From the IMG/VR virus record IMGVR_UViG_3300032373_000013, positions 1 through 53,778 of that record: a DNA stretch of 53,778 nucleotides; one strand, given 5' to 3'. The notes beneath the pieces are model-generated. The model was not told where the DNA came from, did not search any database, and saw nothing but the letters and a program-made list of their open reading frames with translations. Both the position numbers and the translations under genes were made by a program. Positions 13,835 through 53,778 of this stretch are shown here, in pieces. Every line of letters begins with the position of its first letter. Within the stretch, counting starts at the first letter, position 1. The DNA is from a virus (taxonomy: Duplodnaviria; Caudoviricetes).

Positions 13835-14730
13835 CGGCCGTACTTACGACAGCGGGCGCCGCGCATCTCGTGGAACTCGCGCAGGGCGACATCCCGACGA
13901 ACGCATTCGACGCTCTCGTGTTCGGCAAGGGCAACGATGCCCCGGCGATCACCGACACGCTCGAGCAGATCACGGAGCGTACGCAGATCGTCGCACGCCT
14001 CGCGACCGGCTTCCCCAAGCAGGGAGACGATGACGACCGCAACAGTGGTGCGGGCGCGTCCGTGTGGACATGGCGCTTCGAGCTTGAAGCGGGCACACCG
14101 TTCGTTGCGTCGAACTGCGCCATCACGAACTACAGCGGTGGCGCGTTCGTGTCGGATGCGCCCCTTGCCGTGCACGCGAAACAGACCGTCGCGCAACGCC
14201 ATGACGAGCGCCTGATCGTCTGGCTAAACGCGGTAGCGAATGATGAACCGACAGTCTTCACGGCGGTCGAGCAGTCCTTCGAGAACGGCGTGCAGCGTGT
14301 GCATGGCTACGTCGCGCGGAATCGTGCGCTCGCAGGGCATCCGAATGGCGTCTCGCGGAGCACGACGGAGGTATTCACCCGTCCTCAGCCGGGGCAGCGC
14401 GTTTGGTCGTTCGCTGATGTCTCCGGGCCTGATGGCCGCTCGCTACGGCTCGAAGACGTTGAGCGGTTCACGGTGACCCGTGAGCGCCTCAAGGCGAGCG
14501 AGGGTGTGTATGTTCCGGAGAGCATCGAAGACCCCGTCGAGTGCCACGGGCACGTACTAGGCGCGCTCGTGCACTACGACGCGCGCTCGCCGCACATTTC
14601 CTACAACGTCATGCACGGCTACGAGCTTCCGCGTGGAACGTCGGAGGGCACGTACCGACTGACGTACAAGCTCGAGCTGTGCGACGGCGACTTGCGGGGC
14701 TGGACGCATATCGCGGAGGTTGGGCCCTAG
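13831..14730 (+). CDS. Hypothetical structural protein
   Basis: GTGA overlap; N-terminus (LTTAG...LVFGKGN) resembles fibre-collar-type domains. Confidence 0.65.
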   Translation: MTAVLTTAGAAHLVELAQGDIPTNAFDALVFGKGNDAPAITDTLEQITERTQIVARLATGFPKQGDDDDRNSGAGASVWTWRFELEAGTPFVASNCAITNYSGGAFVSDAPLAVHAKQTVAQRHDERLIVWLNAVANDEPTVFTAVEQSFENGVQRVHGYVARNRALAGHPNGVSRSTTEVFTRPQPGQRVWSFADVSGPDGRSLRLEDVERFTVTRERLKASEGVYVPESIEDPVECHGHVLGALVHYDARSPHISYNVMHGYELPRGTSEGTYRLTYKLELCDGDLRGWTHIAEVGP

Positions 14731-37344: not shown

Positions 37345-38100
37345 TCATGACGCGCTCCTGCGCCACTCCAGGGCGCTAACGGTCCGACCGGGCTCGTCGA
37401 GCACGTTGAGGCGCGCGAACGAGCCGTGAAGCTCTAGGGCGGCCTCGTTGTACGCAGACGCGGCTTCACGTTCGGTCACGTAGCTTCCCAAGTGACGATG
37501 CTTGCCGTTCGTGCTGATGAGTGCGGTCCAGCGCTTCGACGGTCCTGATTGCGTGACACCCCGGTACGCGCTCTTCGTTCGCTTGTTCGGCCCAACGTTG
37601 CGAGCGTTCTCGCTGCGCGAGCATGCGCGTAGGTTCCCTGACGCGTTGTTCGATGAGTTGCCGTCGATATGATCGACTTCGAGCGGCCAGGCGTCCGCGC
37701 CGTGAGCGATCGCGTAGACGACGCGGTGGGCGTAGTACTGGGCGCCCTTGAAGCCCACCATCCAGCGACCACGCGGAAGGATGCGCCCAGCAGGATCTCC
37801 GGGTCGTCGGCTGCCGCACTTGTATCGAAAGCGGAGCCCTGATGGCACAGAGCCATCGAGCGAGTACTGCGCACGCAGCTTCTCGACATCCGGGAGTCGA
37901 CGAATTCGGGTGCCGCGGCGTGTCGGTTCGATGGATTGCAAATCTCCCGCCTCACCCTCGCTCACCGGGTCTCCCGACCCCGCGTCGCCAGGCGCTTGTC
38001 CGCGCAACTCCCAGCACGTCCCAACGCCGGTAGATTTTGTGGGCTCCGCTACGGGCTCCACGCCTTCGGGAGTGGATGGATTTTTGGGGTGCTCAGGCAT
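37345..38100 (-). CDS. HNH homing endonuclease with C-terminal AP2 domain
   Basis: AHRVVY...VDHIDGNSSNNASGNLR..S.SEN; YRGV...WTALI...LGSY.TEREAASAYN. Confidence 0.92.
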   Translation of the reverse strand: MPEHPKNPSTPEGVEPVAEPTKSTGVGTCWELRGQAPGDAGSGDPVSEGEAGDLQSIEPTRRGTRIRRLPDVEKLRAQYSLDGSVPSGLRFRYKCGSRRPGDPAGRILPRGRWMVGFKGAQYYAHRVVYAIAHGADAWPLEVDHIDGNSSNNASGNLRACSRSENARNVGPNKRTKSAYRGVTQSGPSKRWTALISTNGKHRHLGSYVTEREAASAYNEAALELHGSFARLNVLDEPGRTVSALEWRRSAS

Positions 38101-38608: not shown

Positions 38609-38684
38609 TGGCGTAGACGGAGGGACTCGAACCCCCAACCGCTCCGTTAACAGCGGAGCGCTCTGCCAGTTGAGCTACGTCTAC
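38609..38684 (-). tRNA. trnN: tRNA-Asn(GTT)
   Basis: 76 nt: acceptor GTAGACG/CGTCTAC, D arm GCTC/GAGC, anticodon arm CTCCG-CTGTTAA-CGGAG, TTCGAGT loop, G73, encoded CCA. Confidence 0.96.
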
Positions 38685-39287: not shown

Positions 39288-40937
39288 CTAACCCTGGGCT
39301 AGACAGGTCGATGAAGAAACTCCGGTGATCGCCACGTAGGCGTCCTCCGGAGTGGTTGCATTAGCCGGGGCGCGCATCGTGTACGTGCGGTCCGTGCTCC
39401 CGTCGCTTGCTACGAGGTACTTGTCACCGTTTGGCATCTGGACAAGTGCGCGCGAGATAGAGCCCGCGGATTCGTTCCATGATTCGATCAGCACTGAGTC
39501 AATCGACAGGAGACGTGCGTCCGCGTCGACTAGGTATCGCTCCCATCCATATCGCTCGATCATGATGCGGCGCACCTCCGCATGGCCCTCGCCAGCGATC
39601 ATCGCGACCGTGATTGACTCGGGTTTCTCGACGACATCGCGCGGTACACGCACGCCCTCGATCGAGTAGATCGCAAAGCCATCCGACCAGCGCATTGCGG
39701 GTCCATCGAGGCAGTGCAGAACGGGTTCCCCGGCGCGATTCACGCCGCGATGCACCTCGATAGGAGCGTCCGAGGCTACGGCGAACTCCTTACAGCCCCA
39801 CCAATGCCCAAGCTCCCAACATTCATCGCGCCATGCCAGTGCTGCGGCATGTGCAGGACCGTCGAGTACAAGGCCGCACACTTCGATGTAGAAGAGCCGC
39901 CAGGCGCACCAGGCCGACCAGTTACGGGCGCCCATGTAGAAATGCCAGTTTGAACGCACCTGGGCGCGCACCTGGTCGTGCACCTGGTCGTACACCTGGG
40001 CGTGCACCTGGGCGCGCACCTGGTTGTACACCTGGGCGCGCACCTGGGCGTCCACCTGGGCGTCCACCTGGTCGTACACCTGGGCGTGCACCTGGGCGCG
40101 CACCTGGTCGTACACCTGGGCGTCCACCTGGGCGTCCACCTGGGCGTCCACCTGGGCGTGCACCTGGGCGTCCACCTGGGCGTCCACCTGGTCGTACACC
40201 TGGGCGTCCACCTGGTCGTGCACCTGGTCGTACACCTGGTCGCGCACCTGGTCGCGCACCTGGGCGTCCACCTGGTCGTGCACCTGGTCGTGCACCTGGT
40301 CGTACACCTGGTCGCGCACCTGGTCGTCCACCTGGGCGTCCACCTGGGCGCGCACCTGGTCGCGCACCTGGGCGTGCACCTGGTCGTACACCTGGTAGTG
40401 CACCTGGGCGCGCACCTGGGCGTGCACCTGGTCGCGCACCTGGGCGCGCACCTGGTCGTCCACCTGGTCGCGCACCTGGTCGCGCACCTGGGCGTCCACC
40501 TGGTCGTACACCTGGGCGCGCACCTGGTCGTACACCTGGGCGTGCACCTGGGCGCGCACCTGGTCGTCCACCTGGGCGTGCACCTGGTCGCGCACCTGGT
40601 CGCGCACCTGGGCGTGCACCTGGTCGCGCACCTGGTCGCGCACCTGGGCGTCCACCTGGTCGTACACCTGGGCGTACACCTGGGCGTGCACCTGGGCGCC
40701 GCTCTTCCTACGCATGTAAGCAACGGCTGGACCAGAGGTCAAAGCGGCGTATGGAGATGGGACGAACACTACAGCCCGAGGGGGCGCTAGACCTGCCGCA
40801 ACGTACTTGCGGTGCAATGCATCTCGCGCGGCATCATGGTCGATCGGCTCCGTGGAATACGCACGGTCAATCCACTTCTGCGCGTAGCCCGGGAGCTGCG
40901 CTTCCTGACCCGGTGTCAGTTTCCCGATGTACTTCAT
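39288..40937 (-). CDS. DUF6745-type protein with about 62 QVxx tetrapeptide repeats
   Basis: Start MKYIGKLTP at 40937; C-terminal LHCLDGPAMRWSDGFAIY..EGVRVP...EVRRIMIERYG. Confidence 0.8.
   Translation of the reverse strand: MKYIGKLTPGQEAQLPGYAQKWIDRAYSTEPIDHDAARDALHRKYVAAGLAPPRAVVFVPSPYAALTSGPAVAYMRRKSGAQVHAQVYAQVYDQVDAQVRDQVRDQVHAQVRDQVRDQVHAQVDDQVRAQVHAQVYDQVRAQVYDQVDAQVRDQVRDQVDDQVRAQVRDQVHAQVRAQVHYQVYDQVHAQVRDQVRAQVDAQVDDQVRDQVYDQVHDQVHDQVDAQVRDQVRDQVYDQVHDQVDAQVYDQVDAQVDAQVHAQVDAQVDAQVDAQVYDQVRAQVHAQVYDQVDAQVDAQVRAQVYNQVRAQVHAQVYDQVHDQVRAQVRSNWHFYMGARNWSAWCAWRLFYIEVCGLVLDGPAHAAALAWRDECWELGHWWGCKEFAVASDAPIEVHRGVNRAGEPVLHCLDGPAMRWSDGFAIYSIEGVRVPRDVVEKPESITVAMIAGEGHAEVRRIMIERYGWERYLVDADARLLSIDSVLIESWNESAGSISRALVQMPNGDKYLVASDGSTDRTYTMRAPANATTPEDAYVAITGVSSSTCLAQG
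39954..40697 (-). repeat. 12-bp tandem repeat CAGGTG-NNC-NNC, about 62 units
   Basis: Uninterrupted cacctg-spaced array on the + strand. Confidence 0.97.
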
Positions 40938-40939
40938 GA

Positions 40940-41377
40940 TCAGAACGGCGTGTCGTTCGGGTCGTTGTAGCTGCCGCCCGTGTCCCCGTACCCGGAGTCG
41001 CCGCCGCCGTACATCGAGCCCTGCTGACGTTGCTGTGGGGGAGAGGTCTCGCGTGACTGCTCGCGGTCGGACTTCGCACCAACGAACGTCCAACGGAACG
41101 CTTTGAAGACGATCCGGGAACGCTTCTGCCCGTCCTTCTCCCAGCGCTGTTGTTCGGGCTCACCCACGACGAACGCCAAGTCACCCTTGCTGTGGTACTT
41201 CGCGAAGTTCGTCGCCTGGTCGCCAAATATGACGCAGTCGAAGAAGCTCGGCACGTCCTCGCCCTTGCTCTTCCTGTTCACGGCGATGGCGAACTGGCAC
41301 ACGACCGTTCCGCGCGCGTCTTTGATCTCGGGGTCACGGACAAGGCGTCCGCCAATCTGGAATGCTGAGAAGTTCAT
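40940..41377 (-). CDS. ssb: Single-stranded DNA-binding protein
   Basis: GRLVRDPE...FAIAVNR...FFDC..FG..A; acidic DTPF tail. Confidence 0.95.
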   Translation of the reverse strand: MNFSAFQIGGRLVRDPEIKDARGTVVCQFAIAVNRKSKGEDVPSFFDCVIFGDQATNFAKYHSKGDLAFVVGEPEQQRWEKDGQKRSRIVFKAFRWTFVGAKSDREQSRETSPPQQRQQGSMYGGGDSGYGDTGGSYNDPNDTPF

Positions 41378-42135: not shown

Positions 42136-43058
42136 GACGCCTTCACCTCCGGGCTCGGTGCCGCCTTCGGCAGTTGCGGGATCGCGCGGAGAGATCGGAC
42201 GCCGCGCTTATTCGTCCTGAACGAGAACGCATGCGCACCGTCCTCGGTAGAGCCCCAAGCGGCGGAGCCCATGCGTTGAATCAGGCGCGCTTTCGCCGCC
42301 TTCTCGGCGTCCTTAGCTGTGTCGGCTTGGGTCTTCGCCGCGACGTATGCGCCCGCCTCTTCGATGGGCAGCGTGACCGTGCGCGGTTCGTCGTCTGGGT
42401 GCAGCTCACGTAGGAACGACTCGTCGCGACTGACCGCGACAGGCTCCACTTCGTCGATGATGTGGCGTTGCCACCACGAGCGCACAGCGTCCTCGATCTC
42501 GCGTCGCCGTTCGTCGGTGACGATTACTTCCGTCGATTGCGTAAGGTCGTCCTCACGCGCAGCGGGCGGCATCAGTGCACAGACGAATCCGCGCCGCAAT
42601 CCGCAGATGGCAAGGTATGCCTCGACCTGGTGGATGTAATGCTCTGGGCACACGCCTGGCGCCCACTGGTCACGCGTGTAGAAGCTAGGCGCCTTGCCCT
42701 CCCAGATGCAGACCTCGCCCGTCATTGGATCCGTGACGAAGCCGTCGGGAGAACCCATGAGGTAGGGGATATCGGGATGGATCGCGAGGCGACTGTTCAG
42801 ATCCACGGGCATACCCGTTGCAACCTCGAACTGCTGCGCCGCGACGGGCTCCATTACGTTTCCCCAGCGCATGAACGCGTTCTCCTCGTCCACTCGACCG
42901 CCACCGAGTTCCAACACTCGGTAGTAGATATCGAGCGCGGTGCGGTACGCGGGGAGGCCAAGGACTGCGGCGAGGTCGGTGCCGGTGATGGCCTTGCGCC
43001 GGATGTCGTGCCACTCGGCGGAACCGTGCACGATGTCGGTGAGGTTGAAGTCACTCAC
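42132..43058 (-). CDS. YqaJ-like viral recombinase/exonuclease
   Basis: W...RRKAITGTD, MRWGNVMEP, GSPDG, WEGK, HYIHQV..YL. Confidence 0.92.
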   Translation of the reverse strand: MSDFNLTDIVHGSAEWHDIRRKAITGTDLAAVLGLPAYRTALDIYYRVLELGGGRVDEENAFMRWGNVMEPVAAQQFEVATGMPVDLNSRLAIHPDIPYLMGSPDGFVTDPMTGEVCIWEGKAPSFYTRDQWAPGVCPEHYIHQVEAYLAICGLRRGFVCALMPPAAREDDLTQSTEVIVTDERRREIEDAVRSWWQRHIIDEVEPVAVSRDESFLRELHPDDEPRTVTLPIEEAGAYVAAKTQADTAKDAEKAAKARLIQRMGSAAWGSTEDGAHAFSFRTNKRGVRSLRAIPQLPKAAPSPEVKAS

Positions 43059-43348
43059 GACGCCACCCTCCCCTCACGCTTCGCTGCCTCGAACGTCAGG
43101 CGGCCGAGGTATGCAAAGTGGACGAGCCTGTTGTGCGACAGGATCGCCTCACGATCGAGTAGTTCGTCGTAGCTGGAGCCGTCAGTCTCGCCCGCTTCAA
43201 TCGCGCGATCCGCAGACACGCACGCGTACTCGCATCGGTAGCCGCATGCGGAGCACGCGACTTGAAGCAGCTTGTGACTGCCCCTGCCCGTGTTGATGCC
43301 GCACGCCTCGTTGCACAGCGGGCACGGCTCGATCTGCGGGAAGTTCAT
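43055..43348 (-). CDS. Small Zn-ribbon protein (Lar-like pattern)
   Basis: PCPLC...VACSACG...AI..HN. Confidence 0.55.
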   Translation of the reverse strand: MNFPQIEPCPLCNEACGINTGRGSHKLLQVACSACGYRCEYACVSADRAIEAGETDGSSYDELLDREAILSHNRLVHFAYLGRLTFEAAKREGRVAS

Positions 43349-43734
43349 GCCGCCCTCCCAACTTCGTAAGCGGCATCCTGGAGGTCACTTTCCAGCAACA
43401 CGTAGAACGCGTGCGCAATGTTGCGGGGGATGCAACGGCCCGGTGCGGGCTCGATGAGTTCCGAGAACACGAGTAGCCCGAGGCTACGATCGCGCTCCCA
43501 GTCTTCGACGGCGTCCGCGATGAACGTGAACCACGAGGCCACGCCATCGCAGTCAGCCCACTCCGCATCGTCCGTCTTGAAGTCGTACGACTCAGGCGTG
43601 CCTTCGCAGCCGAAGGTGATATCCACCGGCCACCGGATCCCCGCGTACGTGACGACGGTTTGCAGTGGCGATTCATTGATCGTGAACCGCCGCTCGAAGG
43701 CCGCGAGGTCTACAGCGTCAACGATGTTCGTCAC
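43345..43734 (-). CDS. Hypothetical protein
   Basis: GTGA/ATGA coupling. Confidence 0.6.
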   Translation of the reverse strand: MTNIVDAVDLAAFERRFTINESPLQTVVTYAGIRWPVDITFGCEGTPESYDFKTDDAEWADCDGVASWFTFIADAVEDWERDRSLGLLVFSELIEPAPGRCIPRNIAHAFYVLLESDLQDAAYEVGRAA

Positions 43735-43970
43735 AGCGACACCTCCGACGCGAGCTGGAGGAGGATGAACAGCGTCGCTTCGATCGCGACCAGAAGCGCA
43801 GCGCCGATCAGCGCCGCCGCAGCGAGAATGCAGACGTCCCCGAAGGTCAGTCCACGTCGCGCGTTACTGGAGTCGCCCGACTGTAACAGCGCCCACGAAG
43901 GCGCAGCCGTTCGCGCACTTTGCGCAACGGCGGTGGGGGCGGTAGCCGCCCCGGAGGAGGGTTTGAGCAT
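43731..43970 (-). CDS. Small membrane protein, first gene of the leftward arm
   Basis: C-terminal hydrophobic helix. Confidence 0.5.
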   Translation of the reverse strand: MLKPSSGAATAPTAVAQSARTAAPSWALLQSGDSSNARRGLTFGDVCILAAAALIGAALLVAIEATLFILLQLASEVSL

Positions 43971-44348
43971 AGGTCATCACGTAGTAGTGCCCGAGTGATT
44001 AGCTCGAGCGGACACCCACACCTTCGGCTGCGGGGCTTCCGCAGTCAACGTCAATCCCGAAAATGCGGGAGAGTTGCGCACGTCGTTACTACCCTGCGCG
44101 GCACGCGGGGCTGGACCGAGCATTGGTCACACGGGTCCCGCGAGGGCTTCGGTCCGGCTAGAACCCCCATCGCGCCGTTGAAGCGGGGCTGATTACCCCG
44201 TGGAGGGGCGGTGGGGGCGACGGCTTCGGTTGCAATTCGGTGCTGCTCAGGTCGAGTCGAGTGCAGCTACGGGCTACATTTCTACCCACCGCTAGGTCGA
44301 TGGTTGATGCAGACTGGAGCGCACTGGCAGACCAAGTGGCCCCCGACG

Positions 44349-44594
44349 ATGAATGAACTTGACGACATGAAGCGCGTCTTCGACGCCCACCGGGCGGAGT
44401 GGATCGAGCAAGGCCGAACGGGCCAGTGGGCGCTGATCGGACCGGACGGCCCGGTTGACTTCTTCGTTGAGTACGTCGAGATCGTCAAAGCTGCCGCTCG
44501 ACTGTTTGGCAATGGCCCCTGCCTGATCCAGCAAGTGCTCCCTGAGGATCCCATCGAGATCATTCAGCGCGTGGACTTCAGCGCGTTCGCGTGA
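44349..44594 (+). CDS. DUF5678-like small protein
   Basis: Likely ATG 44349; F..HR.EW....GQWALI....V.FF..Y.E....A...FG..P.LI.QV pattern. Confidence 0.7.
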   Translation: MNELDDMKRVFDAHRAEWIEQGRTGQWALIGPDGPVDFFVEYVEIVKAAARLFGNGPCLIQQVLPEDPIEIIQRVDFSAFA

Positions 44595-45112
44595 CCGGAA
44601 ACCCTCAGCAGCGCCGATTGGGTGGAAAGAGGGGCGGCAAGGGTAAGAAGCCCCCCAAGGTGCCCGACGCTCTCAGGATCGGCGGAAAGATCGAGAATGA
44701 CGCGTGCTCGATCAAGCTCCACATCTTCAACCCGCTCGAGGCTGGGGGCGTGAAGGGCCAGCAGCCGCCTCGACTCTTCAAGGTCAAGGCCATCATCGAC
44801 ACGGGGGCGACCTCGACGACGATCAGCGCTCGTTTGGCTCAAAAGATCGGCATCACCGGACACACCCGTATCCGTGTGGGGACTGCCGCTGGCGAGGTCG
44901 ATGGTTGGCAGGCACCGGTCGGTATCGCGTTCCTCGACCTCGAGACAGGGCGGACCGTCTCGCGCGTGCAGCCGATGGCGATCATGCCGATGCACGACGA
45001 CGTCCTATTCGGCATGTCGGACATCGCGCAGGGACGGCTCGTGGTGAACGGTGAGGCTGGCGAATGGAAGTGGATCTTGCCCGGCGGCAGTGTCGGCAAC
45101 CCGAAACCGTAG
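44591..45112 (+). CDS. Retropepsin-like (clan AA) aspartyl protease
   Basis: AIIDTGATSTTIS catalytic motif, TAAG flap, DVLFGMSDI; GTGA-coupled to the upstream gene. Confidence 0.88.
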   Translation: MTGNPQQRRLGGKRGGKGKKPPKVPDALRIGGKIENDACSIKLHIFNPLEAGGVKGQQPPRLFKVKAIIDTGATSTTISARLAQKIGITGHTRIRVGTAAGEVDGWQAPVGIAFLDLETGRTVSRVQPMAIMPMHDDVLFGMSDIAQGRLVVNGEAGEWKWILPGGSVGNPKP

Positions 45113-45331
45113 TCACGAGAAGCGGCCGACGATGAGCGGCCCCCAGCGCGCGATGCGCCGAGGGCCTGGGCGTTCGGGAAGAACGGCGAGCGGCGGTTGA
45201 CGCCACCGCACGCAGCGCCCAGATGAGAGGCGCCCCCGCTTGAAGTCTGCCGAACCACGCCAGTGAACGTCACGGTTTCGACGTAAGCGTGTAGCGTGAG
45301 GCGGCACCCAAACTCTCACGAAGCGCCTGCC

Positions 45332-45838
45332 ATGGTTCGACCCCTTGCTATCGCGTGCCTCCTTCTGGCGGCGTGCACTACGACTGGTTCCGTTCTCGAG
45401 ATCGGCCGCGATACCTTCACGGTGTCGGGTCGAAGTGAGTGGGGTTCAGGCAAGGCGCGAAGCGCGGCGATCAACGCCGCCAACCGATACGCCGCGGAGC
45501 GGGGGATGCGTATGAAGGTCGTGACGATGCAGCCCGGGTGGGACCGTGACGCTCTCGGGGATCGGTGGTACACGATGGATCTAACCTTTCGTGTGATCCC
45601 GCAGGATGACCCCGAGTATCAAACGCGTCCAAACCTCATCCCGAGCCAGCGGACGGTGATTACGCACGAGAACGCGCCTCCTGCGGCGCCGCCACAGGCT
45701 GCTCAATCGACCCCGAAGCCTGGAGGGGATGTTGACGCCTACCTCCGGGGACTACTGGAGCGCGGTGAGATCACTCCAGAGCAGTACGGGCGCCTCGTTG
45801 CCGAGCGCCTCGGTGTGACGGGCGACGACGGCGAATAG
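45332..45838 (+). CDS. Lipoprotein with C-terminal SHOCT-like motif
   Basis: MVRPLAIACLLLAA|C lipobox; IGRDTFTVS; LLERGEITPEQY. Confidence 0.75.
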   Translation: MVRPLAIACLLLAACTTTGSVLEIGRDTFTVSGRSEWGSGKARSAAINAANRYAAERGMRMKVVTMQPGWDRDALGDRWYTMDLTFRVIPQDDPEYQTRPNLIPSQRTVITHENAPPAAPPQAAQSTPKPGGDVDAYLRGLLERGEITPEQYGRLVAERLGVTGDDGE

Positions 45839-46054
45839 GCGTCCGCGAGGTTTCCTCCGAAAACCGTGACGGGTCGTCGCAGGCCATACGTTCGGCTCGG
45901 TGCCCCCGGGTAGACGGGCCGCGGCGCTCCCGTGGAGAGACGACGCCGCGGCCCTAGTGGCATTCCTAGGAATGGCGACGAACGTGTGAGACCGCCGCCG
46001 CAAGCGTCCAATGAAAGGCGCCTCCGCGCCAATTGTTCCACTTGTGCTCATACC

Positions 46055-46079
46055 TGGAAAGATAAGCACGGAGTATCTA
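46055..46079. promoter_or_regulatory. Repeated quasi-palindromic site, copy A: TGGAAAGATAAGCACG-gag-TATCTA
   Basis: 22/25 identical to 52250-52274; AGATA...TATCT arms; about 40 bp upstream of ORF 46117. Confidence 0.7.
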
Positions 46080-46116
46080 CTCCCCAGGAGCGCAAACAGT
46101 CGGTATCACCAGGCTT

Positions 46117-46812
46117 GTGATGGATCACGAATGCAACATGCCACTGTCGGGTCTGTTCACAGAGGATCGCCAGCTACTTAGGCTGGCTGCCGGAGACCCG
46201 GTGCGGGCCCTTGCGTACATCGACTCGGTGCGGTGGGTAGAGGGCGCTGATTGCCCCTCGTGCGGCAGCGAGGACACCTACGCCATTACCGGCCGGAGTG
46301 GGACGGCGCGCAAGACGGTGGCATGTCGAACCTGTCGACACCAGTTTGGATGGCGAATTGCGACCCCATTCGCCGGAACGCGCGTTCAGCCGGAGCACGT
46401 CCTATACGCCGTTGCGGGTCTCCTCGATGGGGACCGACCCGAAGTTGTCGCGGTAGACGTAGAGCGCGAGTTTGGCTGTGGGGTGCGTATGGCGCGACTG
46501 GTCCTGAATCGTGTCCTCATGCTCCGCGCAAGCCTCAATGGCCTTGGAGCGGACGACGAAATCGACCAGAAGGAAGTCGTACGGTGGCTGCCGGTGGCTG
46601 CGATTGCAGCAACTGCGACCATCCTCGTTTGCACTGCGTTCTTCGCGCCGAGCGCCCGCGCCGTAAACGAGCTTAATACGCACTGGACTTTCAACGGCGA
46701 CACCATGTCCCATCGAACCATCGCGTTCGTAGAGGAGTCATACTGGGACCTCACGCGCCGCCACGCTCGCGAGGTGGCGCAGATCAAGGGCCACCTCAAC
46801 AGCAGAGATTAG
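46117..46812 (+). CDS. IS1595-transposase-like Zn-ribbon/HTH fused to a TM helix and an unrecognised C-terminal domain (no DDE domain)
   Basis: ALAYIDSVRW..G..CPSCG...CRTCRHQF...TPFAGTR...VEREFG....ARLVLNRV, then WLPVAAIAATATILVCTAFFA. Confidence 0.78.
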   Translation: MMDHECNMPLSGLFTEDRQLLRLAAGDPVRALAYIDSVRWVEGADCPSCGSEDTYAITGRSGTARKTVACRTCRHQFGWRIATPFAGTRVQPEHVLYAVAGLLDGDRPEVVAVDVEREFGCGVRMARLVLNRVLMLRASLNGLGADDEIDQKEVVRWLPVAAIAATATILVCTAFFAPSARAVNELNTHWTFNGDTMSHRTIAFVEESYWDLTRRHAREVAQIKGHLNSRD

Positions 46813-46814
46813 TC

Positions 46815-47099
46815 ATGTCTGGAGTCCTCTCCACGCAATTCGACTGCAACGGAACACGTACCACATGGGCAACCGCTCGGGGGAAGAACCCCCTAGAGCC
46901 CATTCTTGACTTTGCCGACCGTCACAGCGACGAAGTGAAGGACGCCAAGCTCGATTGCAGCAGCAACGTCATCGCGCTCCCGTCGATCACCTCAACGTGG
47001 GAGAGCGACATCGGCACGACGACGTATGGCTCGGATGACGGTCAAGCACAGCACGATTTGGACGTCATCGAGATCCAGAAGGAAATTCCCCCTGCGTAG
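46815..47099 (+). CDS. Small acidic protein paralogous to the C-terminal domain of ORF 46117
   Basis: Starts 2 bp after the upstream stop; shares LxT..NG....T...E...D...RH..EV...K. Confidence 0.7.
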   Translation: MSGVLSTQFDCNGTRTTWATARGKNPLEPILDFADRHSDEVKDAKLDCSSNVIALPSITSTWESDIGTTTYGSDDGQAQHDLDVIEIQKEIPPA

Positions 47100-47325
47100 C
47101 TAACTCAGTGACGGGTAGGTGTTTGAGCCTCGCGCGATCCCCCGTTGATCAAGGATTTGCGCTACGGCGGGTAGCGTGCCCGTGCGCCGCTTTCTACGTT
47201 GCGGATGTCGAGACCTACTCGGAGTGAGATCCGACTCGGCGTCCAATGAAAACCGCTCTGCCCAAAGCGGCAGCCCCGTATCGCACGGGTTCTCCGCACT
47301 CCGACCGTCGTCGGCCCACGCTCGC

Positions 47326-47586
47326 ATGAGTGGGGTCGACGGCAACTCGTCTGCGCCCGAGGCGGCGACGATCGACGCGAAAGAGATCGCGTCCATCATC
47401 GGTATGACCGTGGCGACCGTCCGCGAGTGGCGGAAGCGCACGTGGATTCGAGAGCCGATCGACCGTCCGGCGAAGGGGTTCGCGTGGTGGCGCGTCGAAA
47501 TCTACGAGGACCTTGGCCGCCGTGGGTATGGACCGTGGGCGCACAAGTACGCGCCTAGTTCATCTGACCAGCGGGGGACGTCATGA
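47326..47586 (+). CDS. Excisionase/AlpA-like HTH protein
   Basis: IDAKEIASIIGMTVATVREWRKR...P; ATGA overlap with the integrase. Confidence 0.7.
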   Translation: MSGVDGNSSAPEAATIDAKEIASIIGMTVATVREWRKRTWIREPIDRPAKGFAWWRVEIYEDLGRRGYGPWAHKYAPSSSDQRGTS

Positions 47587-48935
47587 CTCCTCCGCGCGGG
47601 CTCGATCAGGGCATCCTGAAGAAGGTCAACGGGGTATGGATCTTCACATACACCGCCATCGACAAGGCTGGAAAGCGTTCGCGCGGCTCTCACACCCTCG
47701 GGCCGTCTAAGCGCATCGCTGAGGCCGAAGCCAGGAAGCTGATCGATAAGCGCAACGAGCGCCTGTACGGAGTCGGTCCCGACGAGCGGCCTAACGAACC
47801 GTGGCGCCCGTGGCTTGAGCGTTGGCGCACTTCCTATGCCAAGGAGCGCGGCGATCTCAATGCACGCAGGTCCGCGGCACGCCTGGAGCGTGTGCTCGAT
47901 GGAGTCGACGCCGTCAGCTTCGGCGACATAACGATCGGAGCGGTGACGCTCTACCTGGACGAGCTGAGCGATCGTTTCAGCGCCTCCACCGTGAACGACT
48001 ACATCGCGAGTCTCCGCGTGTTCCTCTCATGGTGCGTGCAGCGCGAGGTCATCCCCGAGGAGAACGCAATCCGGCCGAAGTACCTCAGCGTGAGCGGTGC
48101 TCTCGAGCGTCCTGAGTTCACAGAAGAGCAGGTTGCAGCGATCTTCGCCGCTGGACGGGCGCGAGACGCTGCGGCTCGGCGGAACTGGGGCGCGTTTGGC
48201 TCCGGCAGTCATGGCCGACTGAAGTACGCGCAGCCGTTCCCACGGATGCACACGATCGAGTTCCTAACGCTGACCATCAGTCGGCCGGGGGCCGCGCGGC
48301 AGGTGCGAAACTGCGATGTCTACCGTGAGCCGGAGAAGCGCTTCGTGCACTTCCGCGCGGCGACGATGAAGGCGAAGAACGACGTCTACGTGCCGATTGA
48401 GGGAGCGCTCGAAGAGCTGATCGATCGCATCGACGCGACCCACCTTGAGATCACTGGGCGCGTAGGGCGCCCGGAGGAGACTCTGCTCCGCTCACCGGCG
48501 GGTCTCCCGTGGACGAAGAACTCCCATCCGCTCGTGAAGTGGTTCCAGTCCGCGATGAAGGACGCGGGGATCGAGAAGGAGGTCCCGGGGTTCAAGGATC
48601 GCGACGTGTACTGCCTTCGCGGCTTTGGCGTGACGCGGATGTTGCGTGCCACACGCGATCCCGTGCTCGTGGCGAAGATCGGCGGCTGGACGGACCCGAA
48701 GGTCATGCTGAGGCACTACGAGAAGCTGAACCTCGGTGACACACGCGAAGCCATCGGCGCGATGCAGTTGCCGACGGGAATCACGGAACAAATCGCTGGC
48801 GAGGCTCCGGACGCCGGGTCGGGAGGCGCACGCGCACCCCCTAAGTTCTGCCGACGTCTCGGCTTGCGACGGCGGTTGCACTCACGGCGCAGCATGACAA
48901 GTGCCGAGAGAATATCTCCTTCGCCTCCCCATTGA
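47583..48935 (+). CDS. int: Tyrosine recombinase (integrase)
   Basis: SASTVNDYIASLRVFLSW core-binding region; catalytic R (SRPG), K (MKAK), YCLR, GGW...RHY. Confidence 0.9.
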   Translation: MTPPRGLDQGILKKVNGVWIFTYTAIDKAGKRSRGSHTLGPSKRIAEAEARKLIDKRNERLYGVGPDERPNEPWRPWLERWRTSYAKERGDLNARRSAARLERVLDGVDAVSFGDITIGAVTLYLDELSDRFSASTVNDYIASLRVFLSWCVQREVIPEENAIRPKYLSVSGALERPEFTEEQVAAIFAAGRARDAAARRNWGAFGSGSHGRLKYAQPFPRMHTIEFLTLTISRPGAARQVRNCDVYREPEKRFVHFRAATMKAKNDVYVPIEGALEELIDRIDATHLEITGRVGRPEETLLRSPAGLPWTKNSHPLVKWFQSAMKDAGIEKEVPGFKDRDVYCLRGFGVTRMLRATRDPVLVAKIGGWTDPKVMLRHYEKLNLGDTREAIGAMQLPTGITEQIAGEAPDAGSGGARAPPKFCRRLGLRRRLHSRRSMTSAERISPSPPH

Positions 48936-49191
48936 CCTCCTAGCTATGTCAATGCGAGACAGAGGTAAACCGCGCCATGTCGAGGTAAGTGAAGCGGAAC
49001 GTCGCCATACCGCGGCGTTTAGGTCGGACCGGACAGCGCTAAACCGCTGCATCTAGATCGACGTCGATGCAAACGCCTGTGAGCGTTTCAACGAACAAAT
49101 CGGCCTGAGACCAGGTCGCCACCGCACCGCGTGACTGGGGCCGCACCCCTAGTCGCGCACCCCACACCACGTGCCATCCCGAGGGGAAGGT

Positions 49192-49683
49192 ATGCCCACA
49201 AAGAAGGACAAGAAAAAGGACCGAAAGCTCCGCCAGGCCGCGCGGCTCTACCGCCAGGCGGAGATCACTCTCGAAGAGGCGGCGCAGCTCTGCGGCGTCA
49301 AGCCCTCGACGCTGCATAAGTCAATGGCGGACGGGGGGGAGCAGCTCCGCCCGCGCGGATGGACGCGGAAGCTAACCGACGCCGACGAGAAGGAGATCCT
49401 CAAGCTCTCGCGAGCCGGGAAGACCGTCGCTGAGATCGCCGAGGCTACGGGCTGGGCGTCGTCCACGATCAGCCGCGTTCGCTCGCGCCATGGATTCGAG
49501 CGTCCCAAGTCGCGGACGCGGATCTACGACGCCGACGGGGAGCTTCTCAAGAAGCGGTGCCCTGCGTGTGACCGTCTCCGCCTGGCGAAGTTCTGGGCGA
49601 TGAACGCGGCGTCGAGTGACGGGCGTCAGGGCTACTGCAAGAGCTGCACGAAGGAGCGCAGGGACGCGGGGAGGGCGGCGTGA
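49192..49683 (+). CDS. HTH DNA-binding protein with C-terminal Zn finger
   Basis: Two HTH-like segments (LEEAAQLCGVKPSTL; VAEIAEATGWASSTISR); CPAC...CKSC. Confidence 0.75.
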   Translation: MPTKKDKKKDRKLRQAARLYRQAEITLEEAAQLCGVKPSTLHKSMADGGEQLRPRGWTRKLTDADEKEILKLSRAGKTVAEIAEATGWASSTISRVRSRHGFERPKSRTRIYDADGELLKKRCPACDRLRLAKFWAMNAASSDGRQGYCKSCTKERRDAGRAA

Positions 49684-49898
49684 TCAAGCGCTTCGCCCGC
49701 AAGGGCGTTGAGTTCTCCGCGACCGACATCTGGCGCGCGATGAAAGGCAAGCCCGACCCGTCGCAACGACGGCGCATTGGCTGCCTGTTCCGTGAGGCGA
49801 AGGACGCGGGCGTCATCGAGCACGCGGACATCCGGCGCACCAAATCCCCGACCCGCAAAGGCGGTCTCGAACACGTGTGGCGCGGAGTGCGCCGCTAG
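49680..49898 (+). CDS. Small basic winged-helix-like protein
   Basis: FSATDIW...IGCLF..A...GVI...VWR; GTGA overlap. Confidence 0.6.
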   Translation: MIKRFARKGVEFSATDIWRAMKGKPDPSQRRRIGCLFREAKDAGVIEHADIRRTKSPTRKGGLEHVWRGVRR

Positions 49899-49994
49899 CA
49901 ATCAAACACGTCCGGCGTCGTGTTCGCGAGATGTGCTCGCGATGACGCCGGACGCTGAACGGGGCGCAGTTTCGCCCCACCCCACAGTAACGAC

Positions 49995-50321
49995 ATGCAG
50001 ATCATTCTGGACGACGACGACATTCAGCTCTTCAACTCTTCGATGGCACGCCTGGAGCGCAATGGGAAGGGCAAGAACTGGTTCGCGACAGGCGAGTTCG
50101 CACGTGAAGTCAGGCGTGCAACTCGGGACGAGTTGTTGGCGAAGGGCGTGAAGCTCAAGACGCGCGGCTGTGCCCGAACACTGAGCCGCGCACAGGCGAT
50201 CGAGGCGTTCAAGTTGCGCCGTGACGGCTTCACGTGGAAGGAGTTGTCCGAGCACTTCGATTGCTCTGAGTCGGCAGTCAGGACGGCCTACCTCGCACAC
50301 GTCGAATCGATCCTCCTCTGA
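49995..50321 (+). CDS. Small protein with C-terminal HTH
   Basis: LRRDGFTWKELSEHFDCSESAVR. Confidence 0.7.
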   Translation: MQIILDDDDIQLFNSSMARLERNGKGKNWFATGEFAREVRRATRDELLAKGVKLKTRGCARTLSRAQAIEAFKLRRDGFTWKELSEHFDCSESAVRTAYLAHVESILL

Positions 50322-50358
50322 TCCCACCCACCCCCTCAACCCCAACCCCTGAACTGAC

Positions 50359-50571
50359 ATGAGACCTCTCGAACTCGACACGGAACCGAAGGGCTGCTCA
50401 CAGAAGCGATCCGGGCGCAAGCTCGAGGAATCTGAATGCAACCGCATCGTAGCGGAGTACCTGGAGGGCGACGAAGACGCGGCGACGATCGCAGTGCGGC
50501 ACTCGGTGCGTCGCGCGGTCGTCGAGCAACTCGTCGGCCGCCACTACTTCCGCCAACGGAGGTCAGCGTGA
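50359..50571 (+). CDS. Small HTH-like hypothetical protein
   Basis: IVAEYLEG...TIAVRHSVRRAVVEQLV. Confidence 0.55.
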   Translation: MRPLELDTEPKGCSQKRSGRKLEESECNRIVAEYLEGDEDAATIAVRHSVRRAVVEQLVGRHYFRQRRSA

Positions 50572-50774
50572 GCGACATCAAGGTGACGTGCCGCGGCTGC
50601 CAGGAGCGGAAGTGCGCGGAGACGGCGTACGAGTACGAGCGTGGTCAACGCCGACCTGAGTGCAAGGCGTGCGAACGCCAAGGTGAGCGAGAGCGCAAGG
50701 CGCGTGCGACGCATGGGCTGGCCGCGCGTCTCGACTCCCGGAACATCGCCTTTTGGGTGGGGAGTGTGGGGTGA
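50568..50774 (+). CDS. Small Zn-finger protein
   Basis: GGAGG RBS; CRGC...CKAC. Confidence 0.6.
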   Translation: MSDIKVTCRGCQERKCAETAYEYERGQRRPECKACERQGERERKARATHGLAARLDSRNIAFWVGSVG

Positions 50775-50777
50775 GCG

Positions 50778-51311
50778 ATGAGTCTCCAGACACGCTACCA
50801 GCTAACGCGGCACTTCGACGGACCGGACGATGGAACGACGATGGCATTCGTCATGCTCAACCCGTCCACAGCGGACGAGCATGTCGATGACCCGACGATC
50901 CGCCGATGCGTTGGGTTCGCGAAGCGTGAGGGGTTCTGCGGCATCCGCGTCGCGAACCTGTTCCCATTTCGATCGACCGACCCGAAGGGTCTGTTGGACT
51001 GCGGTGTAAGTGGCCTCTGCTCCACAGAAGAGGAGATGAGCGCATGGCGCGGCGTGACCTATGGGCCTCGAACGTGTACGACCGTCGTCGCTTGGGGCTC
51101 GCCGCGCTCAGGATCGCTGCGCACGTTGATCGAGAACAAGGCGCGGCTGTTCACCGCATGGGCTCACACGTTCGACATTGCGCTGCACTGCCTCGGCACG
51201 ACGAAGGATGGACACCCACGGCATCCGCTCATGCTTCCAAGGGGCGCAGAGCTGCGCCCCTGGGACGCGACCGGCATTGGGTGCCCGGCGCAGGAGTCCC
51301 CCGATGCCTGA
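50778..51311 (+). CDS. DUF1643 family protein
   Basis: FVMLNPSTAD...DDPTIRRC..FA...NLF..RSTDP...VAWG...HPRHPL. Confidence 0.92.
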   Translation: MSLQTRYQLTRHFDGPDDGTTMAFVMLNPSTADEHVDDPTIRRCVGFAKREGFCGIRVANLFPFRSTDPKGLLDCGVSGLCSTEEEMSAWRGVTYGPRTCTTVVAWGSPRSGSLRTLIENKARLFTAWAHTFDIALHCLGTTKDGHPRHPLMLPRGAELRPWDATGIGCPAQESPDA

Positions 51312-51522
51312 CGGCATCAATCTCCAGCGCTGGTACCCGGTGCTCTCCGGAGGGCGCGCACGTCTCGGCCGACGTAATGCGGAAGGCGATCGCCGCTTCG
51401 CGAACTCTCAGTCGGTCTACCTGGCGCGCGATGTGGACTTGGTCTTCCGGTTGCTCGTTGAACAACTCGCAGAGGCTCGCGGTTCGAAGGACGCGGGGCG
51501 GGGGGTGAAGACCGATGTCTGA
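51304..51522 (+). CDS. Hypothetical protein
   Basis: AGGAG RBS; in-frame ATG 51304. Confidence 0.5.
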   Translation: MPDGINLQRWYPVLSGGRARLGRRNAEGDRRFANSQSVYLARDVDLVFRLLVEQLAEARGSKDAGRGVKTDV

Positions 51523-51892
51523 CCCGACCGAACGCGAGACGTGCCCCCGGTACGACTGGGGCTACGACGGCATGGAGCAGGATGCCGATGGGCTCTACGT
51601 CGATGCCGAAGAGGTTGTGAGCCGCGACGAGAAAATCGCGGAGCTGGAGCACCAGCTTGAAGTCGTGCGTATCTACAGCCGAGACATGGAATGGCTGTCG
51701 GTCGAGCTGATAGCAGAACGCGACGAAGCCCAAGCGAAGCTCGCGGAGGTAATCAAGGACCGCGACCTCACATCAGGAGGACCAGCCTTGCATCGAGGTG
51801 GGCCGGACCACGTCATTAAGGTGACGCCGGATTGGTTCGATCGATGCGACGCACTCTTGGCGCGTCCTACACGGGAGGCTGACCATGGGTAA
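51515..51892 (+). CDS. Hypothetical coiled-coil protein
   Basis: MEQDADGLYV motif; operon packing. Confidence 0.65.
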   Translation: MSDPTERETCPRYDWGYDGMEQDADGLYVDAEEVVSRDEKIAELEHQLEVVRIYSRDMEWLSVELIAERDEAQAKLAEVIKDRDLTSGGPALHRGGPDHVIKVTPDWFDRCDALLARPTREADHG

Positions 51893-52166
51893 CGTCCTCG
51901 GCCCCGACCCCGTCGTACAGCTCGTCATGCACGGATGCTGGTTCTGCGCGGACACCGCCAGAGTCTGCATCCACTGCGCCCACCCCGCGGACACCTTTCC
52001 ATGCGGGAAGTACAACCGGAAGCTCGGCACGTGTCCTGAGTGCAGCGGCAAGCGCCAGCCGCGCCCGAACGTCTCACGCTTCCTCGCGGACGTCTACGCG
52101 CCGAACAAGCGGTACGCCGGGATGAAGCGCCCGACAACCGACAGCCGCAAGGGGAGGGCGTCGTGA
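51885..52166 (+). CDS. Cys-rich hypothetical protein
   Basis: GGAGG RBS; CWFC, CIHC, CPEC. Confidence 0.6.
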   Translation: MGNVLGPDPVVQLVMHGCWFCADTARVCIHCAHPADTFPCGKYNRKLGTCPECSGKRQPRPNVSRFLADVYAPNKRYAGMKRPTTDSRKGRAS

Positions 52167-52249
52167 CGATCGCAGTCCTCATCGGATTCGGGGCATTGAT
52201 CGCCATCGCTCTTGACGCGGCGGAGGCGGAGGTGAGTGACGCTCTATCG

Positions 52250-52274
52250 TGGAAAGATAAGCACGTGCTATCTA
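52250..52274. promoter_or_regulatory. Repeated quasi-palindromic site, copy B: TGGAAAGATAAGCACG-tgc-TATCTA
   Basis: AGATA(A)GCACGTGCTATCT is a near-perfect palindrome; matches 46055-46079. Confidence 0.7.
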
Positions 52275-52561
52275 TACGACCGATCGGTTTACTAACCGAT
52301 ACGAGATCCGGGTTTTGCTTGCAATCTGGACACGGACACGTATCAATCGTGGTGCGCAGAAAAGCGCGCACCCCGCACCCGGCGACAACCGGGGTACGGG
52401 GTACTTCGACACCTGGAACTAACAGGGGCCGCGAATGCGGTCAATATCATGGCTGAGAGACATGACGGGCTCAACCGCGAGCCCGAGACTACGCGCACGG
52501 TCCGTCTAGGGGAAGACCCCGAACGGATGGCTAACGCCCATGTAGTCCAGGAGCTTCATTC

Positions 52562-53602
52562 GTGAGCACCTGCTCCTGCGCCTCCAAGGGCCGCCCAGAG
52601 TGGTTCCCGTTCCACGCGGCGGACTTCCTGAATTCAGACACCTGCGCCGATGTGAACGGCGTGGAGCGCGCCCTCTACGCGCTGATGCTCGTCCTGGCCT
52701 GGAATGGCCCCGGGCTCCCCGCGGACCGCAGACGCCTCGCGAACCGCCTCGGTGTGGACCGCGAGCAGGTGGACGACCTCCTCGATGGCCCAGTCGGCGA
52801 GAACTGGTTCGAGTGCTGTGGAAAGCTCTGGAACGAGCGCATGGAGGAGCAGCGGGTGAAGGCTGAAGCGCGCTCCAAAGCGGGGGCGAAAGGGGGCAAA
52901 GCGAGCGCCGAAAAGCGCCGTCAGAAGGCTTCCAGGAAAGCCTCGGATCCAACGACCGTTCAACGACCGTTTAGAACGACCGTTGAACGACCGTTGAACG
53001 ATCGTTTAGAACGACCGTTGAACGACCGTTCAACGACCGTTGAACGACCGTTCGAACAGATAAGAGGAGAGGAGATAAGAGAAGAGACACTCCCTAGCGG
53101 GAGTGTAGGCGCGCACGCGCCCGCGGAAGGCCAATCCAAGCTCGGGAAGGCACTGGGGGAGGCGCTGGAGCCGATACCGCCCGAGGCCGAGGATGCGCTA
53201 CGGCTCTGGGCCGAGCACCTGACCGAGCGTGTCGGGGCGTCGAGGGGCGTCGCGTACTGGCGTGGCGAACTCAAATCCGCAGGACGCGACCCAGCGGTGT
53301 ACGCCCAGCGTGTGGCGTTCTCGATCTCGAAGGACGCGAAGTCCGTGCTGGCGCCGAAGTCGGACGAGCTAGCGGCGTTCCTCGGCGAGCAGGATTCCAC
53401 GGCACTCGCGGCGCCGGGCACAGGCGGCGTCGAAGCCAAGCATCTCCCGTTCAACGCGAAGTCGGACATCTGGGAGGCCAAGCAACGCGAGGATCGCCGA
53501 CGTCGCCTAGCGGCAATCGACGCCGCCGAAGCCGCTGCGGCCGAGCCGCGCCTCGTCAACGTCGAGCCTCCCCGTCCACGTCTCGCCGGGGGTGACCGCT
53601 GA
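52562..53602 (+). CDS. Replication initiator, DUF1376/YdaU-type N-terminus (lambda O analogue)
   Basis: PEWFPFHAADFL...ERALY..ML..AW...LP....LA...KLWNERM; AGGAG RBS; internal iterons. Confidence 0.85.
   Translation: MSTCSCASKGRPEWFPFHAADFLNSDTCADVNGVERALYALMLVLAWNGPGLPADRRRLANRLGVDREQVDDLLDGPVGENWFECCGKLWNERMEEQRVKAEARSKAGAKGGKASAEKRRQKASRKASDPTTVQRPFRTTVERPLNDRLERPLNDRSTTVERPFEQIRGEEIREETLPSGSVGAHAPAEGQSKLGKALGEALEPIPPEAEDALRLWAEHLTERVGASRGVAYWRGELKSAGRDPAVYAQRVAFSISKDAKSVLAPKSDELAAFLGEQDSTALAAPGTGGVEAKHLPFNAKSDIWEAKQREDRRRRLAAIDAAEAAAAEPRLVNVEPPRPRLAGGDR
52951..53052. repeat. Nine iterons AACGA(C/T)CGTT; probable replication origin
   Basis: Copies at 52951, 52962, 52975, 52986, 52997, 53010, 53021, 53032 and 53043, followed by a purine-rich tract. 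Confidence 0.85.
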
Positions 53603-53778
53603 TGGGTGCCCATAACGACCCGCTGAACGCGCTGGGATTCACCGACGTGAACGGCCAGCTCGAGAAGCTCGCGAACGGCTACGGCCGCAACGAGCCGAAG
53701 GACGCGATGGTCCACGTCTGGGTTGCGAGGCTCCGTGAGTCGCGTGTGAAGCCCAAGGAGCTAGAGGCCGCCGCGGAC
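53602..53778 (+). CDS. 5' part of the junction-spanning ORF (continues at 1-466)
   Basis: MGAHNDPLNALGFTDVNGQLEKLANGYG reads into the repeat. Confidence 0.7.
   Translation, partial: MGAHNDPLNALGFTDVNGQLEKLANGYGRNEPKDAMVHVWVARLRESRVKPKELEAAAD
53649..53778. repeat. Terminal direct repeat (right copy)
   Basis: Matches 1-130. Confidence 0.97.

Follow-up and report, generated by a model that had tools for sequence, protein, structure and literature searches.

Gene Order of the Region

The subject of this analysis is a 3.6-kb stretch (positions 43,971 to 47,586) of IMG/VR record IMGVR_UViG_3300032373_000013, a Caudoviricetes virus sequence of 53,778 nucleotides (nt); the whole record, at its full length, is called the window below. 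The stretch carries five co-oriented genes, which encode a small protein, a retropepsin-like aspartyl protease, a lipoprotein, a protein with a transposase-like zinc ribbon and one transmembrane (TM) helix (P4), and a small partner of the latter (P5). They are followed by genes for an excisionase-like helix-turn-helix (HTH) protein and a probable tyrosine integrase (xis-int; Table 1). A previous inspection of the letters alone, referred to here as the sequence-only reading, had given the same order of genes, which is borne out, and had taken the five genes upstream of xis-int for a single lysis/lysogeny switch built without a CI-type repressor. In our analysis this wider five-gene switch is not supported, while the P4-P5 pair may represent a new kind of phage regulator.

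Table 1. Genes and sequence elements of the region and related features elsewhere in the window (aa, amino acids; ORF, open reading frame).
Feature	Positions	Strand	Remarks
Holliday-junction resolvase	1980-2525
Large terminase	14541-16289		phrog_2 6.2e-24
Divergent intergenic region	43971-44348		between leftward recombination operon and rightward genes (ORF map)
Small protein	44349-44594	(+)	81 aa from this ATG; ORF open from 44211
Retropepsin-like (clan AA) aspartyl protease	44591-45112	(+)	173 aa; PF13975, PF13650
Lipoprotein	45332-45838	(+)	lipobox LLAAC; weak SHOCT-like C-terminus
G+C hairpin	45916-45954	(+)	11-bp stem, 17-nt loop; 3' of lipoprotein gene
Perfect 14-nt palindrome CATTCCTAGGAATG	45961-45974		just past the 11-bp-stem hairpin, in the lipoprotein-P4 gap
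13-mer GCGTCCAATGAAA then G+C hairpin, copy 1	46004-46030	(+)	before P4
Box 1	46046-46079	(+)	holds TGGAAAGATAAGCACG; ends 38 nt before P4 start
P4	46117-46812	(+)	231 aa; Zn-ribbon (4 Cys) and helical domain, one TM helix, outer domain of ~45 aa
P5	46815-47099	(+)	94 aa; starts 2 nt past P4 stop
13-mer GCGTCCAATGAAA then short G+C hairpin, copy 2	47239-47271	(+)	upstream of xis
Excisionase-like HTH protein (xis)	47326-47586	(+)	phrog_66 3.5e-4, phrog_2474 1.7e-3
Probable tyrosine integrase (int)	47583-48935	(+)	phrog_1 2.1e-24
Double-HTH protein	49171-49683	(+)	XRE-type HTH_31 and HTH_23, C-terminal Cys-rich ribbon; directly past int
Box 2	52241-52274	(+)	in 395-nt gap before replication gene, ~300 nt upstream
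DUF1376-type replication-module gene	52562-53602	(+)	PF07120 9.4e-7, 29.6 bits, just under cut-off of 30.1

The P4 Protein and Its Family

The N-terminal part of P4 is matched by Zn_ribbon_IS1595 (1.5e-9; 38.1 bits against a cut-off of 25.4, and 40.6 bits in the six-frame search), and one hydrophobic helix, predicted to span the membrane, follows it, in agreement with the earlier description of P4 as a transposase-like, membrane-anchored DNA-binding protein. The catalytic domain of the corresponding transposases, DDE_Tnp_IS1595, is absent from the eight Pfam families matched by P4 at E<=0.1, as is the OmpR-type winged helix (Trans_reg_C); past the TM helix, the C-terminus consists of 55 residues.

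An exhaustive HMMER search with P4 gave 299 matches at E<=1e-3, for which 150 representatives were listed. Most of the matches are N-terminal parts of IS1595-type proteins, and the homology to them reaches approximately residue 135. Among the 150 representatives listed, at least 30, P4 included, possess both the TM helix and the C-terminal domain and have a common architecture: a four-Cys ribbon with a helical region (~135 residues), a variable linker, the TM helix, and a conserved C-terminal domain of ~45 residues. Members are 20-31% identical to P4 in the alignment (A1), where W39, C45, C48, C69, W189, E206, and R214 are invariant; the C-terminal domain shows the pattern W...T.R...E...RH, which is present in P4. 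Since 30 divergent members keep this architecture, the possibility that P4 is a broken insertion sequence was rejected. Ten members were looked up, one of which was named ("MAG: transposase [Planctomycetota bacterium]", MAG standing for metagenome-assembled genome). Members P0002, P0008 (from a Planctomycetota MAG), P0113, and P0014 are encoded on contigs of 43.8, 48.1, 43.2, and 29.3 kb, respectively.

A word-index protein search with P4 returned only P4 itself, and the same kind of search with the A1 profile returned four proteins, three of them already known. No relatives of family member P0008 were found in genome contigs, and degenerate ribbon-motif patterns detected 17 loci in viral, genome, and metagenome contigs, none of them with the C-terminal domain. 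P4 belongs to a rare and apparently undescribed family, defined by the small outer domain.

The membrane topology was addressed by charge distribution. In the 15-residue flanks of the TM helix of the 30 members, lysine and arginine amount to 108 on the N-terminal side versus 45 on the C-terminal side, the former being richer in 24 of the 30; therefore, the DNA-binding-type domain is predicted to be cytoplasmic and the C-terminal domain to lie outside. The AlphaFold2 model of P4 made from the family alignment (mean pLDDT, the predicted local distance difference test, 86.7) comprises the ribbon, three helices at residues 91-141, the TM helix (150-175), and the outer domain, which is a beta-hairpin with a helix (184-225). 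In the Atlas structure search, residues 15-166 aligned to clusters of IS1595 transposases with TM-scores of 0.45-0.49; the nearest Atlas feature clusters are stand-alone Zn_ribbon_IS1595 proteins of 127-150 aa, some of these clusters being mostly viral. Taken together, these data make P4 look like a DNA-binding protein tethered to the membrane, the N-terminus being on the cytoplasmic side.

The P5 Protein

The sequence-only reading had called P5 a paralogous partner of P4, and this description proved correct. A profile of the C-terminal domain built from 29 homologues, with the window's own P4 left out, was run against the 1047 ORFs of the window and recognized P4 (4.6e-7) and P5 (3.9e-5), the next best match having an E-value of 0.65. 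MAFFT independently placed P5 residues 5-47 on the outer domain of the P4 family, with the E, R-H, and T positions retained. Judging from the profile and the alignment, the N-terminal half of P5 is a soluble copy of the P4 outer domain. A model of P5 from the P4-family alignment showed the same hairpin-plus-helix (pLDDT ~90), an outcome favoured by the alignment and hence not independent. In direct comparison of P4 with P5, BLASTP found no similarity, and the Smith-Waterman score of 30 was reached in 33 of 2000 shuffles. The C-terminal half of P5 is unlike the outer domain and was modelled with low confidence; as its score was reached by 1382 of 2000 shuffles, the idea of a tandem duplication of the domain in P5 was dropped. 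Neither a signal peptide nor a TM segment was found in P5, and prediction of a P4-P5 complex gave a score of 0.01 (mark 0.32).

The Repeated Box and the Replication Module

The 16-mer TGGAAAGATAAGCACG occurs in exact copies at 46055 and 52250 only. It sits within a 25-nt box, of which 22 positions are identical between the copies, and both copies contain the dyad AGATA-N9-TATCT. When the terminal overlap of the record and one tandem-repeat gene are excluded, only two exact 16-mers recur in the window more than 200 nt apart; TGGAAAGATAAGCACG is the sole A+T-rich one of them, and a repeated 16-mer with at most seven G+C was obtained in 0 of 100 Markov simulations. Both boxes are intergenic and on the same strand. 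They fall in different reading frames, and the ORFs running over them have no coding signal (for the box-2 ORF, the G+C content at third codon positions, GC3, is 0.51 past the box); therefore, the box is conserved at the DNA or RNA level. No matches to the 25-nt box were found in viral contigs. The repeated site noticed by the sequence-only reading is thus real and non-random, and it precedes both P4 and the replication module. Approximately nine 11-nt iterons (AACGACCGTTG and variants) are found at 52951-53066, inside the DUF1376-type gene, and likely constitute a replication origin. A tRNA-Pyl predicted at the iteron array was rejected as an ARAGORN miscall.

Two further explanations of the boxes were considered. 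First, as direct repeats with a dyad that flank xis-int, they could be att-like ends of a 6.2-kb integrase-bearing cassette (46055-52274) and not operators. However, the dyad spacer differs at three positions between the copies, int lies 1.5 kb and 3.3 kb away from them, the breakpoint seen in a relative (see below) is at 45843 and not at the box, and the composition does not shift; we regard this explanation as extremely improbable. Second, P4 could anchor the phage DNA at the membrane while it is replicated or segregated, binding the box by the origin region and its copy at the P4 gene itself, on the pattern reportedly provided by p16.7 of phage phi29. The position of box 2 relative to a replication gene with internal iterons agrees with such a role, and so does the joining of a DNA-binding-type domain to a membrane anchor in P4. 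On the other hand, tethering leaves the conserved outer domain and P5 without explanation, there are two sites only, fold searches detected no homology to a known membrane replication organiser, and one family member comes from a MAG contig whose label is simply bacterial. We judge a tethering function to be distinctly improbable.

Mosaic Structure in a Relative

Sequencing runs of a second study contain a relative that is 95-99% identical to the window and whose contigs include the recombination genes. Its match resumes exactly at 45843, 5 nt past the stop codon of the lipoprotein gene (X2 record 15 and X3 record 22). A 1414-nt contig covers 46275-47344 with six differences and breaks 18 nt into xis. 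In both X2 and X3 position 47344 is joined to 47481, so that 136 nt inside the excisionase gene are skipped or replaced; the xis/int segment is mosaic. Bases near this joint are densely substituted in the relative. The runs have almost no cover of 43260-45842, which fits replacement of that segment and is not evidence for it.

The P4 and P5 genes with their flanking intergenic regions (45843-47344) are thus conserved in a cassette-like manner and look like a self-contained block with mosaic edges. The match edges at 45843 and 47344 therefore separate P4-P5 as a unit from the lipoprotein and the protease pair. They are also contrary to a single integrated module of five genes, as the contigs part within or beside it at both positions, in two runs each. 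The evidence is thin, coming from one study at low depth, and speaks against a functional coupling of P4-P5 to the lipoprotein and the protease.

Small Protein, Protease, Lipoprotein, and Intergenic Elements

The divergent intergenic region from which the rightward genes start has an RNA-fold z-score of -2.16, with 4 of 100 shuffles folding equally well. It contains no clear operator-like repeats, and no sigma-70-like promoter was detected in a scan of 43000-53778. The first leftward gene at the divergence point (43731-43970, minus strand) encodes a 79-aa product with a hydrophobic C-terminal segment; the product has no family match and is not an HTH protein.

The ORF of the small protein has codon-position G+C contents of 0.68/0.37/0.77, typical of coding sequence here, and its stop codon is overlapped by 4 nt by the start of the protease gene. 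The protein gave zero matches to Pfam, NCBIfam, PHROG, and PADLOC. Its earlier designation as DUF5678-like finds no support in Pfam, as PF18929 was not detected at E<=10 in the 81-aa form or at E<=0.1 in the 127-aa form; the sole backing is an Atlas lead, scored 0.86, pointing to a cluster of proteins 17% of which have DUF5678.

The identification of the aspartyl protease holds: the match to PF13975 (2.1e-11) reaches 44.7 bits against a cut-off of 28.2, PF13650 matches at 5.6e-11, and the translation carries the catalytic D-T/S-G motif as DTGA. Matches to TIGR02281 (3.9e-7) and TIGR03698 are under the cut-off, and a word-index protein search found only the protease itself among 83 candidates. 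The lipoprotein gene was likewise correctly assigned; its signal peptide, MVRPLAIACLLLAAC, ends in the lipobox cysteine (as read by eye), and the SHOCT match of the protein (E 0.023) is under the cut-off.

Intergenic gaps of 219 nt (protease-lipoprotein), 278 nt (lipoprotein-P4), and 226 nt (P5-xis) separate the genes. The sequence-only reading placed folded leaders here, yet the three regions fold no better than shuffled sequences, with z-scores of -0.35 (45113-45331), -1.50 (45839-46116), and 0.01 (47100-47325). In a search of Rfam at the gathering threshold a tRNA alone passed, and leader families were absent even at E<=1. The hairpin downstream of the lipoprotein gene is a candidate terminator, and the palindrome CATTCCTAGGAATG next to it may be a second operator. 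As to the 13-mer GCGTCCAATGAAA, found before P4 and upstream of xis, the 10-mer core has two occurrences with at most one mismatch, and at least two matches were also obtained in 27 of 100 shuffles; repetition of this core alone is not rare by chance. Short ORFs beginning at the TCCAATGAAA motif were rejected as genes, having no coding signal (GC3 0.46 and 0.61).

These data bear directly on the switch proposed by the sequence-only reading, in which the protease, checked by the small protein, or P5 would release or inactivate P4, the sole immunity repressor. All the genes from the divergence point to xis-int are indeed co-oriented, the protease gene is within 1 kb of the gene for a tethered DNA-binding protein, and the box precedes the replication module. 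Against this, the genes are spaced by the gaps listed above, one of which holds the 11-bp-stem hairpin; the folding of the leaders is unremarkable; the relative's contigs depart from the window between the lipoprotein and P4 genes; and the protease, a protein with a basic N-terminal tail, has neither a TM segment nor a signal peptide nor any known link to P4, so that control of P4 by proteolysis finds no backing.

Excisionase, Integrase, and Candidate Repressors

The ends of the record overlap, positions 1-130 being the same as 53649-53778 with a single mismatch (position 4). This overlap shows the genome to be complete, either circular or terminally redundant, with a length of ~53,648 nt, although the record itself is classified as linear and 53% complete. 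Its gene content indicates a temperate tailed phage. The leftward operon, from 43970 to ~34500, includes genes for a YqaJ exonuclease, ERF, SSB, and an HNH-AP2 endonuclease; the rightward genes run from ~44.2 kb across the ends to 34.6 kb and comprise everything outside this operon. No close relative of the genome was found among 50,697 phage records, and megablast and tblastn searches of the same collection with the region, P4, and the protease gave zero matches. Searches of viral contigs for the loci of relatives, with P4 and the integrase as queries, found none; the YqaJ exonuclease as a query found one locus, 26% identical. No RNA sequencing runs carrying the sequence were listed.

Several other features of the genome were recorded. 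A tRNA-Asn (GTT) gene lies at 38609-38684 on the minus strand, inside the leftward early operon. On the same strand, the endonuclease gene at 37345-38100 in the early region encodes HNH_3 and AP2 domains (3.6e-13 and 8.1e-7), and an ORF of 601 aa at 39288-41093 has in its middle ~240 residues a near-perfect four-residue repeat, Q-V-[RHYD]-[AD], with a DNA period of 12 nt; the Logan assembly of the source run breaks at this repeat. A DUF1643 protein (5.1e-30) is encoded on the plus strand at 50778-51311, also in the early region.

The start of xis was set at the ATG just before its HTH, which has weak matches to MerR and other HTH families, and the xis stop overlaps the int start by 4 nt. The match of the integrase to PF00589 (17.4 bits) is under the cut-off of 27.1. 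A gap of 235 nt, which may hold attP, separates int from the gene at 49171, whose product has two HTH domains: HTH_31 (4.4e-7; 30.6 bits in hmmscan and 31.2 bits summed in the six-frame search, cut-off 27) and HTH_23 (3e-12), the second being homeodomain-like. Its C-terminal Cys ribbon has Lar-like or HNH-like PHROG matches. In the six-frame search of the genome, HTH_3 and HTH_31 matched nowhere outside 49171-49683, and this protein is a candidate for a conventional repressor or regulator. A second HTH_23 protein is encoded at 49995.

No Peptidase_S24 domain was detected in six frames of the complete genome at E<=1 (a control search was positive in 12 of 14 genomes), and Peptidase_M78 was similarly absent at this threshold. 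An XRE-type HTH was found in none of the five genes of the proposed module. Hence, the statement that the interval from the divergence point to xis-int is free of XRE and S24 genes is confirmed, and the description of the phage as CI-less holds in part: the complete genome has no S24 repressor, and the search with hidden Markov models for a missed CI did reveal an XRE-type HTH_31 candidate directly after int. The lack of S24 and M78 peptidases anywhere in the genome agrees with the five-gene switch, and the XRE-type gene next to int goes against it; with the points given above, we consider that switch very unlikely.

The same HTH genes suggest another explanation, in which the lipoprotein, P4, and P5 are "moron" cargo expressed in the lysogen for superinfection exclusion or another envelope function, the HTH proteins at 49.2-50.3 kb are responsible for immunity, and the box serves as a shared promoter or as the operator of one of them. 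Temperate phages are said to carry often exclusion lipoproteins or membrane proteins between the switch region and int, Ltp of phage TP-J34 being an example. The mosaic flanks in the relative and the separate intergenic regions of the units are consistent with cargo, as are the HTH genes at 49171 and 49995. However, a protein for exclusion would have no need of a conserved domain of four-Cys ribbon and helices in common with the DNA-binding end of a transposase, the presence of the box before the replication module points to joint control with a core function, and PADLOC gave zero matches for P4, P5, and the lipoprotein. Such an explanation seems to us rather unlikely.

A Possible Role of P4 and P5

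We propose that the 3.6-kb stretch would consist of three units in the integrase-proximal arm rather than one module: (a) the translationally coupled small protein and the presumably cytoplasmic retropepsin-like protease; (b) the stand-alone lipoprotein; and (c) the P4-P5 operon together with a control region of its own, formed by the hairpin, the palindrome, and the box. The first two units most likely represent accessory cargo that can be exchanged, and P4-P5 of unit (c) is the part with the hallmarks of a regulator. The cytoplasmic part of P4, seen as an IS1595-type zinc ribbon and a helical DNA-binding module without the DDE domain, would bind the 25-nt box, present only before its own operon and before the replication module. 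P4 could then tie transcription of both to a signal that its outer domain perceives at the envelope, much as ToxR and CadC do. P5, predicted to be cytoplasmic, would modulate P4, and P4 would work beside, and not in place of, the XRE-type HTH protein at 49171. Action of P4 as a tethered regulator through the shared box, alongside the 49171 protein, is a tentative but in our opinion genuine possibility. What the data show directly is the gene content, the family, the topology signal, the paralogy of P5, the site, and the cassette-like conservation; DNA binding by P4, its target site, and any part in the lysis/lysogeny decision are inferred. A bolder version can be drawn, with P4 as the founder of a new class of transposase-derived, membrane-tethered transcription factors. 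It would be a sensor for the choice between lysogeny and replication whose outer domain reads an envelope or extracellular cue, and, bound to the box, it would repress the replication module as well as the P4-P5 operon, with P5 as a decoy or a chaperone for this same fold; all this together is decidedly unlikely.

Several observations weigh against a regulatory role of P4 at the box. The label of the only named family member is just "transposase", and the family need be neither phage-specific nor regulatory. P4 itself has a weak charge bias across the TM helix (2 vs 1), and in fold searches with it no DNA-binding relative stood out from the noise (best Foldseek E 0.38; best Z in VIA 5.4). The box could be a promoter or an operator of another protein and not be tied to P4. 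Lacking a signal peptide, P5 is predicted to be in the cytoplasm, across the membrane from the P4 outer domain, and the two are therefore not expected to meet. Finally, the relative that defines the edges of the P4-P5 block is known from contigs of depth 2-6 from one study, and the unmatched tails at 45843 are 27 and 13 letters long.

If P4 does bind the shared box, it would be a clean case of the domestication of a transposase into an envelope-coupled regulator, and its two genes and two sites would make a compact test system; if it does not, the stretch would be ordinary accessory cargo. The host likely belongs to the phylum Planctomycetota, as indicated by one named homologue only; to our knowledge, the biology of Planctomycetota phages is almost unknown.

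Comparison With Known Systems

In the position of the gene block on the lysogeny side and in the idea of proteolytic control, the region resembles ImmR/ImmA of ICEBs1 and the CI/LexA-type repressors exemplified by phage lambda. Unlike in these systems, the genome has neither an M78 metalloprotease nor an S24 domain. In contrast to ImmR/ImmA, the protease is here an aspartyl enzyme of clan AA, and the candidate regulator is membrane-bound.

The N-terminal ~135 residues of P4 are homologous to those of IS1595-family transposases, which combine Zn_ribbon_IS1595 with DDE_Tnp_IS1595; in P4, the place of the DDE domain is taken by the TM helix and the conserved 45-aa domain. The N-terminal domain is also common to the stand-alone phage Zn_ribbon_IS1595 proteins (the Atlas clusters and phrog_25593, of unknown function). 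The latter are soluble proteins of 127-150 aa and have neither the TM helix nor the outer domain of P4. Full-text literature searches yielded no description of a family of regulators that make use of the DNA-binding end of IS1595 transposases. We know of no phage lysis/lysogeny circuit run by a membrane-bound one-component regulator, and a related full-text search showed nothing relevant among the papers listed.

A further parallel may be found in bacteria, where ToxR/ToxS, TcpP/TcpH, and CadC are membrane-bound one-component transcription regulators. Like ToxR, TcpP, and CadC, P4 is predicted to carry its DNA-binding domain in the cytoplasm, joined through a single TM helix to a small domain outside, and, as in ToxR/ToxS and TcpP/TcpH, the gene of the partner is immediately downstream, at a distance of 2 nt. 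P4 differs from ToxR and CadC in using an IS1595-type zinc ribbon with helices and not the OmpR-type winged helix. P5 differs from ToxS and TcpH in having no TM segment or signal peptide and in being a paralogue of the outer domain itself. Finally, unlike ToxR, TcpP, and CadC, the P4-P5 pair is phage-borne.

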